Under the pieces are notes generated by a model that did not search any database, was not told where the DNA came from, and worked only from the letters and a program-made list of their open reading frames with translations. DNA of 64,000 bases from an uncultured Methanoregulaceae archaeon (GTDB lineage: Archaea > Halobacteriota > Methanomicrobia > Methanomicrobiales > Methanospirillaceae). Of this stretch, positions 25,704-59,564 are shown in pieces. A program made the position numbers and the translations under genes. The DNA lies in contig OY969564.1 of the NCBI GenBank assembly GCA_963701095.1, positions 320,001 to 384,000 on the forward strand, read 5' to 3'. Within the stretch, counting starts at the first letter, position 1, and each line of letters starts with the position of its first letter.

Positions 25704-25845
25704 CCGGAGATTGATTCTTTTTCACTCTATCCGGAAAGTAAAACAAACAGACTTTTCAATATCTCTTAATTTTTAATATTCTTAATATTGCAAATTTTGC
25801 AAAAAATGGGGAGATTTTTATTTTCCATTAATGAAAAGAAGTTTG

Positions 25846-25883
25846 TCCCCGTATATAGTAAAAATGATATGTGGGGAATGGAG
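25846..25883 (+). promoter_or_regulatory. 5'-leader hairpin, copy 1
   Basis: TCCCCGTATAT / ATATGTGGGGA stem with two G-U pairs, loop AGTAAAAATG, followed by GGAG. Confidence 0.55.
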
Positions 25884-25889
25884 TCGTAT

Positions 25890-26105
25890 ATGCCTGTAAA
25901 AAAACCAAAGATCAGCAAGGCCGGGAAAGCACAAAAAATATCTGACAAGGCTACGCTAAAAATGCATAACGATGTCACTGCATCACTTGAGCAGTTGGAA
26001 CATCCTGAAGTGAAAGCGAAGAAAAAATCAGGTTTCCATAATGCCATTTCTACAGTTAGAAATGTAGTAGCACGGAAGCCAGAAAAAAAATTGAAAAGGA
26101 AATGA
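25890..26105 (+). CDS. Lys-rich hydrophilic small protein (family with 52909 and 53578)
   Basis: GGAG RBS; KAQKISDKATLKMHNDVTASLEQLEHP motif. Confidence 0.75.
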   Translation: MPVKKPKISKAGKAQKISDKATLKMHNDVTASLEQLEHPEVKAKKKSGFHNAISTVRNVVARKPEKKLKRK

Positions 26106-26119
26106 TTGCCGGGTGAGTT

Positions 26120-26275
26120 ATGTTTGATCTAATCTATCTCGCGGTAATTTTCCTTATCCTTGCCCTGATTTTTTATATAGTAGGTGCTCGGGGTATAGCC
26201 GGCTTTTCCATGGAAATCGCAAAGTGGCTCGTAATTATCTTTGTTATAGTTGCTGTAATCACATTTCTGTTGTAA
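26120..26275 (+). CDS. DUF1328 / UPF0391 (YtjA-like) small membrane protein
   Basis: [38 protein letters not shown]. Confidence 0.85.
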
Positions 26276-26408: not shown

Positions 26409-26564
26409 ATGGCTGATCTCATCCAATTTGCTGTGATTTTTCTTATACTTGCTCTGATTTGTTTTATGGTGGGTATAAAAGGTATAGCCGGGCTCACTAT
26501 GGATATCGCAAAATGGCCCGTCGTGATACTCATTGCAATGGCTATACTCCTTCTCGTATGGTAA
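26409..26564 (+). CDS. DUF1328 / UPF0391 small membrane protein, second copy
   Basis: [29 protein letters not shown]; same 156-nt length as the first copy. Confidence 0.8.
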   Translation: MADLIQFAVIFLILALICFMVGIKGIAGLTMDIAKWPVVILIAMAILLLVW

Positions 26565-52570: not shown

Positions 52571-52812
52571 ACACGTGGATACATCTCGAAGTTAATATAA
52601 ATTTCTGAAGGTACGAGATCGGTTTGGGAAGGACTTCCCTCTCCTTAAATCATAAAAAAATGGAATGAAGAATTTTACATTGTATTCATAAAGATTCCAT
52701 TTATCGACAAATTTCTCTTGGAGGAACAGTTCAGCCTTTTCTTAAAAAAAACGACAAAACAGGTGTTGCATCTTTGTACATTTATCGTTCCAAAATCAAC
52801 AATCGTATCGTT

Positions 52813-52908
52813 TTTTGCAATAACAGCACATGCTTATCCACTATCTCGTTCAATGGTGGCCTGTTCTGATAGATAAAAATCAATATCAGAACAGGAATTG
52901 GAAACATA
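52813..52908 (+). promoter_or_regulatory. Conserved upstream box plus 5'-leader hairpin, copy 2
   Basis: Perfect 12-bp stem CCTGTTCTGATA/TATCAGAACAGG, loop GATAAAAATCAA. Confidence 0.7.
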
Positions 52909-53163
52909 ATGACTGACACCCCGAAAGTAAAGGCAAGCAAAGCTGTAGATGACGCACGCGTAGCTTCACATGCTACGAATGATGATGCGAAACTCTCGTC
53001 ACATAATACCCTCAAGGATGCGAAGACCTCTGCATATTCCACACGCAATGACGCAGTAAAAGCACAGAATATATCAGATAAATTCAACATCCATGCTCAC
53101 CAGGTCGATTCCCGGGCGAAAATTGCGGCACACGAGTCTCAATCAGAATCGATGATGAAGTAA
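52909..53163 (+). CDS. Hydrophilic 11-mer-repeat small protein (LEA-like)
   Basis: DDARVASHATN/DDAKLSSHNTL/KDAKTSAYSTR repeats; KAQNISDK. Confidence 0.75.
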   Translation: MTDTPKVKASKAVDDARVASHATNDDAKLSSHNTLKDAKTSAYSTRNDAVKAQNISDKFNIHAHQVDSRAKIAAHESQSESMMK

Positions 53164-53481
53164 TGGTGAAATAAATTGATCTCTGAAGTAATTGTTTAGA
53201 TAAGTTGGATAAAAGTGAGGTATTTTTCAATAGGAAAAACCAGAGATCTTCAACCAACTTATCAGAACTGTCATTCTCAAAATTTCTTCCTGCCGTTTTT
53301 ATTGAAATCCATTCTTCCTAGGGGCACATCCATGGCGTTGTATGCGCTTAACGGAACTTCAAGAACGTAATGTCGTCCTACTGCACCAGTCCTGCGGGTA
53401 ACGAGTTTCCGAGATGTACGAAAACCTATCTGCAGAAAGGATCGAACAGATCGTTTTTCAGAAAACAATAATTGTAACGTT

Positions 53482-53577
53482 TTTTGCAATAACAGCACAG
53501 CCTTAACCGCCAGGCAGCTCAATGGTGGCTTGTTCTGATAGAGAAAAATGATTTCGGGACAAGGAGTTGAAAACATT
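53482..53577 (+). promoter_or_regulatory. Conserved upstream box plus 5'-leader hairpin, copy 3
   Basis: CTTGTTCTGA/TCGGGACAAG stem overlapping AGGAG; collinear with copy 2. Confidence 0.7.
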
Positions 53578-54102
53578 ATAACTGACACGAAACAAGATGC
53601 GGCCAAATCCGCAAAAGCCAAAAGAACTGCTGACAAAGCTACGCTTAAAATGCATGATGACGTAACCACATCGCTCGAGCAGCTGGAACATCCCGGAGTA
53701 ACAGCCAAGAAAGTACCAGAAGAGCCAAAAACCGGTGCCCATAAACACATGACCGGTGAAGAAAAGATTGCCACTTTCAATCAGCACAAGCATGCCGGAG
53801 GTGAAAATCATAAGGGCTCCCCAGCTACAAGTGCCCACAAAGATGTTCCCGGCCATTCAAAGACTGAGATCCAGAAACTAATGTATTCACATATTTCTAA
53901 GGCACTTGCGAAAGCGAAGTTCCCCATCTCCACCCGTGCAGAGTTCATATCTGCTTTTCCACACGGTGCAGAAACAACCTGTCATGTGGGTAACTGCACA
54001 ATGACCGCCGGAGATGCGGAAAAACTTATAAGACCCACAGACTTCCCGTTCAGGAATGTGAAGTCAGTTGCTGATGTTATCATTGCGCGGACTGAATCAT
54101 AA
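53578..54102 (+). CDS. MTH865-family protein with N-terminal hydrophilic extension (start uncertain: ATA at 53578 or ATG at 53548)
   Basis: AKFPISTRAEFISAFPHGAETTC...DFPF (MTH865); DKATLKMHDDVTTSLEQLEHP. Confidence 0.8.
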   Translation: MTDTKQDAAKSAKAKRTADKATLKMHDDVTTSLEQLEHPGVTAKKVPEEPKTGAHKHMTGEEKIATFNQHKHAGGENHKGSPATSAHKDVPGHSKTEIQKLMYSHISKALAKAKFPISTRAEFISAFPHGAETTCHVGNCTMTAGDAEKLIRPTDFPFRNVKSVADVIIARTES

Positions 54103-57995: not shown

Positions 57996-58898
57996 TTTCC
58001 TGTCCTCCTGAAATTTTAAATCGGTTTATTTCACCTTCAATGTAAATTTGAAAATGTGTGCTCCGATTTTTGTACGGGAATCAGCCTGGCGAGTTCGATA
58101 GTGAATTTACCTGATTTTTCCTGTGATTTGATTTCATCATTGCATGTAGGTCTGTAGCGACCTTTGCCTCCCAGCGGGTTGATGGGGATGAACACGGGGC
58201 CCCCTCACTCACGTTATGGGATGCCATGCGAGAGTTATTGACGAAATTGCAGCCTTTTTGGGATTGCCCGATCTGATTTCCGACTCTTTTATACGGCTAT
58301 TTTTAATTCTTTATAGGCGTAAGCCACCATGGTGTGAAGAAGTGGATAAGCCTGTCCTGTTGTTACAAAATTTGCAGTAAAAATAATCAGGTTCTGCACA
58401 AATCCCCTCTCAAGAAGTGCATAGAAAGCGAAAAAGGATGGTGTTCGGTGTCTTTTATCAATGCGATTGGTTGATCCGATATAATGTCTGTGAACATAGA
58501 GCCTATTGATAATGTATCGCAGCGTTCTGGTGTTTAATCTGTGACTGTTATATCTACCAGGTCGAATTCATTCCATTCGCCTTTGATCGTTAAATATCTC
58601 GTTCCGGGTTCACGTACGGCAAAAAGAATAAAAAAATGAAACGGTTACCATAAACGTCAGTCCGTTAATAAAAAATTTCCAAAAGAAGAAGTCTCTAAAG
58701 AAAGGACAAACAGACTTAACTCAGAACCAATCTGGAACCTATGATAAATTCTTTGGATTATTATATCATAGAACTTTTTTTTCTGATTTTATTAGTGAGA
58801 TCTCCTGTAAGAGTGCACGAATCAGATTTTGCAACAACGGGACATACTTATCCGTTTACCCGCTGGAATGGCTGGCGGGAATTAAAGATTGATTTGCC

Positions 58899-59564
58899 AT
58901 GTTTCCCCTCATAGCATTCCTGTTTCCGCTTACCAGCCTTTCTATCTCAAATCTGATTCTTCAGTATGGGATATGGGTATACGTCTTAACCTTTGTCATT
59001 ATCTTACTCTCATCTACTGTCGTTGGTGGGACGATTCCTGACAATACGTTCCTGATCCTGGCCGGAGCAGTTACTAATGGGACCAGTTTGTCTATGACAT
59101 GGTTGTTTGTCGCAGCGGTCGGAGGTGGGTTTGTGGGTTACGAGATCAACTACTGGAGTGGGGAGAGATTCGGGTTACCGATTAGCCGAAAAATATTCCC
59201 GGCGGTGCTTCACGACAAAAATGTAAAGAAGGCTCTTGATATGATGAATCGGTTCGGCATCTCTGCCCTTATCTTCAGCCGGTTCATGCCGGATCTGAAC
59301 CTGCCTTCATTCCTCGATGGAGTGAACGCGATGGATTATCGCAGATATGTAGTATTTAATCTCGCAAGTGCTGTCGTATGGTGCGGGATTCTTTTGATGC
59401 TGGGATATTATATCGGGAGTCTCCCTATAATCAACGCGTACCTGGATTATGTCACGGATCTCTTCATTGTTATGCTGGTAGCAGGGATAATCTTTATAAT
59501 CGTTATAGCCGCCCGAAATTACATGAAACGAAAAAGCAGCGGCTCACCGCAATTAAAGGAATGA
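58899..59564 (+). CDS. DedA-family membrane protein
   Basis: IPDNTFLILAG, GYEINYWSG, SRFMP, FNLASAVVW. Confidence 0.88.
   Translation: MFPLIAFLFPLTSLSISNLILQYGIWVYVLTFVIILLSSTVVGGTIPDNTFLILAGAVTNGTSLSMTWLFVAAVGGGFVGYEINYWSGERFGLPISRKIFPAVLHDKNVKKALDMMNRFGISALIFSRFMPDLNLPSFLDGVNAMDYRRYVVFNLASAVVWCGILLMLGYYIGSLPIINAYLDYVTDLFIVMLVAGIIFIIVIAARNYMKRKSSGSPQLKE

Follow-up and report, generated by a model that had tools for sequence, protein, structure and literature searches.

The hairpins that precede two genes in the 64-kb window (the whole stretch of DNA analysed here) belong, with good support, to a conserved family of leader stem-loops present in some Methanomicrobiales, mostly Methanoregula/Methanoregulaceae. 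The hairpin is part of a cassette that is equally well supported: a TTTTGCAA(C) box at -53, a TATA element at -31/-32, a helix of ~10 bp (5' CUCUGAUAUG ... CAUAUCAGGG 3') enclosing a variable A-rich loop, then 2-4 nt, an extended Shine-Dalgarno (SD) sequence GGAGUUGA, 7-8 nt and the AUG. The cassette precedes several unrelated small genes. Promoter positions are counted throughout from the invariant C of the CUG in the 5' arm. The RNA motif is new, though of a familiar kind: a literature search found no earlier description of it from Archaea, and returned nothing on the motif, the promoter box or the downstream proteins.

Three leader hairpins in the window, designated c1, c2 and c3 (Table 1), had been proposed in an earlier note, and their coordinates and pairing were verified in the sequence. 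The c1 stem consists of 12 perfect pairs, that of c2 of 10 pairs, of which 2 are U-G and one represents a C-G to U-A swap relative to c1, and that of c3 of 11 pairs, 2 of them G-U. None of 200 shuffles was as good as the c1 hairpin (dG -21.2, z -3.86), whereas c2 (z -0.94, 33/200 shuffles equally good) and c3 (z -1.32, 19/200), each taken alone, are not clearly beyond shuffled sequences. Since only c1 clearly beats its shuffles, the case against chance rests on conservation in other genomes. The promoters and leaders of c1 and c2 are 80% identical across 127 nt and represent a tandem duplication, so that these two copies are not independent. A fourth copy of the cassette architecture (c4) lies on the opposite strand; neither an SD nor an ATG directly follows its hairpin, and its helix sequence is unlike that of the other copies.

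Table 1. Cassette elements and genes of copies c1 to c4, in window coordinates.
Copy	Feature	Position	Strand	Details
c1	upstream promoter box	52813..52824	+	TTTTGCAATAAC; at -53
c1	TATA-like hexamer	52834..52839	+	TTATCC; at -32
c1	leader hairpin	52860..52895	+	arms 52860-52871 (CCTGTTCTGATA) / 52884-52895 (TATCAGAACAGG); loop 12 nt, 52872-52883; family core helix 52863-52871 / 52884-52892
c1	weakened SD	52893..52902	+	AGGAATTGGA; aligns with family AGGAGTTGA; first 3 nt inside extended stem
c1	gene	52909..53163	+	84-aa hydrophilic protein, DDAxVAAH repeats, histidines every 11 residues
c2	upstream promoter box	53482..53493	+	TTTTGCAATAAC
c2	TATA-like hexamer	53503..53508	+	TTAACC; at -32
c2	leader hairpin	53529..53563	+	arms 53529-53538 (CTTGTTCTGA) / 53554-53563 (TCGGGACAAG)
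c2	SD	53563..53570	+	GGAGTTGA
c2	gene	53578..54102	+	N-terminal segment common with c3, then MTH865-like domain (PF07747, E 9.9e-23)
c3	upstream box	25795..25802	+	TTTTGCAA; second TTGCAA ahead of box
c3	leader hairpin	25846..25877	+	arms 25846-25856 (TCCCCGTATAT) / 25867-25877 (ATATGTGGGGA)
c3	gene	25890..26105	+	71 aa; segment DKATLKMH.DVT.SLEQLEHP common with c2
c4	upstream box	58363-58370	-	TTTTGTAA
c4	TATA-like hexamer	58344-58349	-	TTATCC
c4	hairpin	58293..58320	-	ACGCCTAT / ATAGCCGT, one mismatch, 12-nt A-rich loop

Whole-leader MAFFT alignments (A1-A3) misplaced the 5' arms because loop lengths differ, and a covariance model (R1) was hence seeded with four consistently aligned leaders (A4), the remainder being aligned by Infernal; a second covariance model (R2) comprised 13 sequences. 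In the host genome, R1 found five sites, namely c1 (54.4 bits; 58.3 bits with R2), c2 (68.8 bits), sites at 432.9 kb and 442.7 kb and one chance-level match (794062, E 0.7). The c3 leader scored just 13.9 bits with R1 (E 0.49) and was not recovered by R2 at E <= 0.001. R1 aligns it in the family register, with G-U and U-G replacing the U-A and G-C of the family, and c3 is a divergent copy with the same architecture.

Of 151 genomes sampled from the order, R1 matched 8; R2, run on 151 sampled genomes belonging to the family, matched 30, which fall into 11 of the 19 genera sampled. Outside the order, a sample drawn from the whole phylum yielded just three marginal matches (E ~0.007 per genome), which were taken as chance. 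The G010 match, which has no ATG, was also taken as chance. The c1 protein has homologues in 13 of the 151 sampled order genomes; of 19 upstream regions of c1-type homologues, ~10 carry a like hairpin, 1 carries a weak one (L022) and 8 carry none (L018:708, L020, L021, L023 and L025-L028). A further 74 loci were picked from titled genome records by protein similarity, not by hairpin. They are mostly from Methanoregula/Methanoregulaceae, and also from Methanosphaerula subterraneus, Methanogenium marinum and Methanospirillum. Searched with R2, the loci yielded 64 sites, of which 61 end at a gene start; the choice of Methanomicrobiales as the group to examine, made in the earlier note, is thereby borne out. 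The leaders have a common anatomy, in which a 5' arm resembling CUCUGAUAUG is followed by a variable loop, a 3' arm resembling CAUAUCAGGG, a gap of 2-4 nt, GGAGUUGAAA and finally the AUG. Some leaders are cleanly without the hairpin (L021, L074, L102, L108, L109, L111 and L153), which is therefore dispensable.

Pairing is maintained across the family. In two alignments, which lean towards structure because they were fitted to the model, 84.0% of 382 cells (38 sequences) and 84.3% of 626 cells (64 sequences from the 74 loci) were paired, compared to 34-50% and 33-50%, respectively, with slid partners; both sides had changed at 9 of the 11 pairs in the former alignment and likewise at 9 of 11 in the latter (41 cells). 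As a control, the promoter-side and SD-side halves were aligned apart, by sequence only, and 74.7% (286/383) of the cells were paired versus 24-49% with slid partners. The aligned sequences are mutually related, and shuffle counts are thus not probabilities. Single pairs show graded series in the 64 sequences, such as A-U 25 / G-U 15 / G-C 11 and U-G 35 / C-G 15 / U-A 9. The arms are paired in the minimum free energy fold of 33 of the 38 and 52 of the 64 sequences. The helices are rich in A-U and G-U, with G-U making up ~13-17% of helix pairs, and G-U by far outnumbers A-C (66 vs 7 in the 38 sequences, 83 vs 14 in the 64). Given this asymmetry, an antisense RNA could not fold, and the helix is selected as sense-strand RNA. 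The compensatory changes and the G-U excess thus bear out the view of the earlier note that selection acts on RNA rather than on DNA structure. The helix core is kept in sequence as well as in pairing, with C-G in 59 of 61 and G-C in 56 of 58 cases in the 64-sequence alignment.

The loop varies from 5 to 59 nt among the 38 members and from 3 to 73 nt (median 37) among the 64, and no conserved loop sequence was found in either set. Adenine typically makes up 0.4-0.6 of these A-rich loops and is more frequent than T on the sense strand, and in 21 of the 38 members an A-run lies within the last 10 nt of the loop, adjoining the 3' arm. The conserved A-rich apex described previously, ATAG-x(1-2)-AAAAAT[GC]A, is indeed found in c1, c2 and c3 but does not extend to the family, in which only the A bias is general; an apex of this type is a feature of the short-loop copies of the host genome. 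The related word ATAGNNAAAAAT occurs three times in the window (0.31 expected); one occurrence (42840) coincides with none of the c1-c3 hairpins, and c3, in which the spacer is 1 nt, is missed.

Upstream of the helix, a TATA-like hexamer is located at -30 to -33 in 32 of 38 members and a TTTTGCAA-type box at -51 to -54 in 25 of 38; in the host copy at 441.4 kb, the hairpin lies ~20 nt farther from the TATA box. One account of Methanolobus psychrophilus promoters places the BRE/TATA ~19-22 nt from the mapped transcription start site (TSS) (PMC5378194). Transferred from that other methanogen order, this geometry would put the TSS 1-6 nt before the invariant C, which corresponds to 0-4 nt before the helix. 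Because the distance to the TATA element and box is fixed, a few nucleotides at most should separate the hairpin from the mRNA 5' end. On this placement, the 3-4 additional pairs at the base of the c1 and c2 stems, which overlap the SD, may lie upstream of the predicted TSS and be partly untranscribed.

Contigs from wetland RNA-seq libraries cover the c1 gene, an observation that shows neither transcription nor its level. The coverage derives from four runs, all consisting of assembled contigs, of which three covered only small shares of the region, and the contig-free stretches 52596-52817 and 53262-53557 carry no evidential weight. An RNA-library contig from a wetland community, representing a ~94% identical relative, begins inside the c1 loop and spans the 3' arm and the gene; the contig of this relative over c1 ends 47 nt past the stop codon and, being assembled, carries no 5' end or strand. 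If this contig derives from RNA, transcription would begin upstream of the 3' arm, which speaks weakly against a TSS downstream of the stem.

The 3' end of the host 16S rRNA is GGAUCACCUCCU, and GGAGUUGA pairs with it at 7 of 8 positions, leaving 7-8 nt before the AUG. The earlier note had described the stems as ending at or overlapping the SD. This holds for c1 and c2, the only copies with an overlap (1-3 nt, through the extra outer pairs), but in most members the stem stops 2-4 nt short of the SD, which lies outside the consensus helix. In the 38 native leaders, the predicted unpaired fraction from SD to AUG averages 0.62; shuffling of the 5' arm gives 0.56 (native higher in 28/38) and its removal 0.59 (native higher in 23/38; p 0.065, not significant). 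In these predictions, the hairpin leaves the SD unmasked and would open it at most slightly, a small effect among related sequences. A switch in which the 3' arm (UAUCAG) pairs with CUGAUA at codons 2-4 was considered and rejected, as the Thr codons ACA/ACG of homologues break the complementarity.

The c1 protein has no Pfam match; of its 14 database relatives, one is labelled as an ATP synthase subunit and the others are unnamed or 'hypothetical'. In an alignment of 20 c1-type proteins, H21 and H65 are invariant, and H32 and H54 are present in at least 90%. The downstream genes had been taken to be three related genes, which is correct for c2 and c3, whose proteins are 64% identical across a 42-residue segment, but not for c1, which has only the first four codons in common with c2. 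In c2, the codon at the ATG position of the family is ATA, and an in-frame ATG is located at 53548, within the hairpin loop. The c3-type protein was found in just 2 of the 151 order genomes, too few for a separate alignment, and two DUF1328 genes lie downstream of c3.

Across the family, genes of at least four types lie behind the leader. Most encode the repeat protein of 70-84 aa; the others encode a protein of 120-133 aa whose N-terminus is related and whose CxxC tail resembles a zinc ribbon, proteins of the c2/c3 type, or a membrane-anchored protein that weakly matches the DUF883 C-terminal region (E 0.0044, under the Pfam cut-off) and is encoded at 442.6 kb in the host genome and in L065. 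Further sites of the promoter module in the host genome were located with nhmmer. The box is also found before a gene for a VTT/DedA-type membrane protein (window 58899-59564), before c4 and at several sites at 432-459 kb. Taken together, the genes that carry the box or the leader look like a stress-type regulon, a label borrowed from bacterial relatives of the matched families.

We tentatively consider that the most likely role of the hairpin is that of a 5'-terminal mRNA stabiliser and insulator of the ribosome-binding site. The stem-loop would cap the 5' end of the mRNA, because the promoter geometry sets the predicted TSS 0-6 nt before the helix, and, together with a ribosome on the adjacent strong SD, would shield the transcript from 5'-3' exonuclease decay of the RNase J type. 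The hairpin would also keep the purine-rich 3' arm from disturbing the ribosome-binding site. Transcripts induced from the common promoter would thereby be long-lived and well translated, and the hairpin would sense neither ligand nor temperature. The strong SD close behind the stem, a feature of the aprE type, is present in the form of GGAGUUGA 2-4 nt after the stem. A review attributes RNase J-like activity to all Archaea (PMC3997798), and the host has an RNase J-like ORF of ~450 aa (genome position ~1927030-1928364) with piecewise matches of 192, 164 and 73 bits, each under the 400-bit cut-off. Evidence against this role comes from the sequence conservation of the stem core, since a pure stabiliser would need pairing alone, from the dispensability of the hairpin in the leaders that lack it and from the displaced hairpin at 441.4 kb.

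Because the helix is conserved in sequence, beyond the needs of pairing, it stays conceivable, if on balance doubtful, that a regulon-specific RNA-binding protein recognises the CUGAUAU/AUAUCAG helix, perhaps together with the A-run, and either blocks or promotes initiation on every mRNA of the regulon; a protein-bound loop was among the options named in the earlier note. The A-run adjoining the 3' arm in 21 of 38 members, the A-rich sense strand of the loops and the position of the helix directly beside the SD (2-4 nt) are consistent with such an operator, and a leader common to at least four unrelated small gene types is what a regulon-wide signal predicts. However, the loop of 3-73 nt has no conserved unpaired nucleotides, half of the helix is replaced in divergent members (L033, L066) and no candidate binding protein has been identified; furthermore, conservation of the 5' arm may reflect its position at the transcription start, because the arm persists without a 3' arm in L074 and L109. 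We regard as rather unlikely the extended proposal of a two-level stress regulon in Methanoregulaceae-type methanogens, in which the palindromic TTTTGCAA(C) box would be the target of a transcription factor and the CUGAUAU/AUAUCAG helix, at the 5' end of each regulon mRNA, that of a dedicated RNA-binding regulator; if true, no cis-RNA operator serving a whole regulon would have been described in Archaea before it. The retention of the 5' arm in hairpin-less leaders would also fit a DNA element, with the inverted repeat serving as a dimeric transcription-factor operator or as a promoter-proximal or initially transcribed element and the RNA fold being incidental. The fixed TATA distance and the overlap of the inverted repeat with the predicted start site point in the same direction (archaeal repressor sites typically overlap the transcription start site). 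This explanation is improbable: a DNA palindrome gives no reason for G:T to exceed A:C (66 vs 7 and 83 vs 14), the spacing of the half-sites varies from 3 to 73 nt, and changes on both sides of a pair preserve complementarity.

We likewise give little credence to the possibility that the palindrome has no function of its own and is merely tolerated, having been carried along with a duplicated promoter-leader module, as the c1/c2 tandem duplication, the many members that are paralogues within one genome and the existence of hairpin-less leaders might suggest. Pairing has been kept across the 11 of 19 sampled genera with a match while the loop turned over completely, slid-partner controls pair at just 33-50%, and a single pair can run through a graded series (e.g., A-U 25 / G-U 15 / G-C 11). 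Finally, it is very unlikely that the hairpin is an RNA thermometer or a riboswitch controlling access to the ribosome-binding site, as the earlier note had suggested, even though the extended lower stem of c1 and c2 covers the first 1-3 nt of the SD and the A-U/G-U-rich composition (~13-17% G-U) would suit melting of this sort. The SD lies outside the consensus helix, and the SD-to-AUG segment is predicted to be mostly open (0.62), a value that neither shuffling nor removal of the 5' arm raises; the extra pairs of c1 and c2 may fall at or before the predicted TSS. Riboswitch features, such as conserved unpaired nucleotides or a multi-helix pocket, are absent, the structure being a single helix without a junction and with a loop conserved in neither sequence nor length, and there is no Rfam match. 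Two other candidates were rejected: a terminator or attenuator, as no U-run follows the stem, and a MITE-like mobile element, as the hairpin keeps a constant place with respect to promoter and SD.

A 5'-terminal stabiliser would have familiar counterparts in the E. coli ompA 5' UTR and the B. subtilis aprE leader, which also combine a simple stem-loop, here predicted to lie near the mRNA 5' end, with a strong ribosome-binding site close behind and lack conserved loop nucleotides. In these two systems, the 5' stem-loop, in the case of aprE together with ribosome binding, reportedly stabilises the bacterial mRNA. Unlike them, the methanogen hairpin is from an archaeal host, has no sequence similarity to either, has a sequence-conserved helix core across genera, and is tied to one promoter type and one gene set. 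As an A-U/G-U-rich leader hairpin beside the SD of stress-type genes, it also resembles the ROSE and fourU thermometers and the SD-masking leader stem-loops described for alternative 5' UTRs of Methanolobus psychrophilus (PMC5378194), but the SD and AUG of the methanogen family lie outside the helix and are predicted to be open. A search of the window against Rfam 15 returned two tRNAs only, with no family at the gathering score on the hairpin sites, and a search of two loci at permissive E-values gave only chance snoRNA-type matches (E 0.24-1.6), none of them on the hairpin strand. The motif thus has no credible Rfam match at either threshold, in keeping with the earlier note.

To our knowledge, few conserved cis-acting mRNA structures have been described in Archaea, and we are aware of little that explains how archaeal mRNA is protected from 5'-3' decay. 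The motif is short, covarying and clade-restricted, and is linked to a recognisable promoter and small proteins. It therefore offers a handle on the role of a 5' leader hairpin in an archaeon and on the organisation of a candidate stress regulon, both in peat and wetland methanogens. Should it prove to be merely a stabiliser, it would still be a useful expression part for methanogen genetics. As a minor observation on the loops, several of the long ones have a common inner palindrome of the TTATCATGATAA type.

A promoter box with the common, partly palindromic sequence …GATTGNTTCANATTTTGCAACAAC… lies upstream of scattered small stress-type genes in the window and elsewhere in its own genome, separated from the TATA box by a gap of ~12 nt, and its position is kept across genera. 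The box is a candidate binding site for a transcription factor, which would define a regulon.

Coordinates of the promoter boxes and of associated features
Feature	Position	Strand	Remarks
Promoter box	window 25795-25802, 52813-52824, 53482-53493, 58827-58834		
Promoter box	window 58363-58370	(-)	
Promoter box, further copies	own genome, about 433.0, 441.5, 442.8, 453.3, 456.2, 459.0, 2337.6 kb		
Hairpin of the fourth copy, c4	window 58293-58320	(-)	arms ACGCCTAT/ATAGCCGT, 12-nt A-rich loop
Two tandem genes for DUF1328 small membrane proteins	window 26120-26275, 26409-26564		directly 3' of c3
13-codon ORF MFMKMMQTPGEGV	own genome 442660-442626, outside the window	(-)	behind the SD of the leader

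In the fourth copy, c4, the promoter box and TATA box are as in the other copies and are followed by a hairpin of differing sequence, with the transcript directed towards about 58150. Neither an SD nor an ATG was found directly downstream of this hairpin, and the ORFs further downstream encode only 48-52 aa; c4 may specify a small RNA or else a small protein.

The second copy in the window, c2, carries ATA (53578-53580) where the family aligns ATG, and an in-frame ATG is present 10 codons 5' of it, at 53548, inside the hairpin loop. An RNA-library contig of a near-identical strain, an assembled contig showing neither transcript ends nor strand, covers the c2 ORF from 53604. ATA is likewise found in a further member of the family, L062, where an early stop comes after it. 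The 13-codon ORF stops 2 nt ahead of the ATG of a gene with a weak DUF883-type match and could represent an upstream ORF or a case of translational coupling.

In the long-loop members L032, L034, L057, L060 and L065, the loops have in common an internal TTATCATGATAA-type palindrome with A-runs on both sides, which may form a second small hairpin or be the remnant of a longer ancestral helix. In seven natural leaders (L021:1702-1751(-), L074, L102, L108, L109, L111 and L153) the loop and the 3' arm are gone, but the promoter and the SD are still present, as is the GCTCT that starts the 5' arm; these hairpin-less leaders could act as ready-made comparison alleles.

The small proteins of the c1 type (for example, that encoded at window 52909-53163), for which no family match was found, contain DDAxVAAH repeats with histidines spaced by 11 residues, a spacing reminiscent of the LEA-type 11-mer repeats. 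Across the alignment of 20 such proteins, H21 and H65 are invariant, and H32 and H54 are present in at least 90%; the regularly spaced histidines could bind metal.

In two loci (L122 and L143), the methanogen gene and leader reside on contigs titled as Saccharimonas and Bacteroidales bins, which are probably mis-binned.
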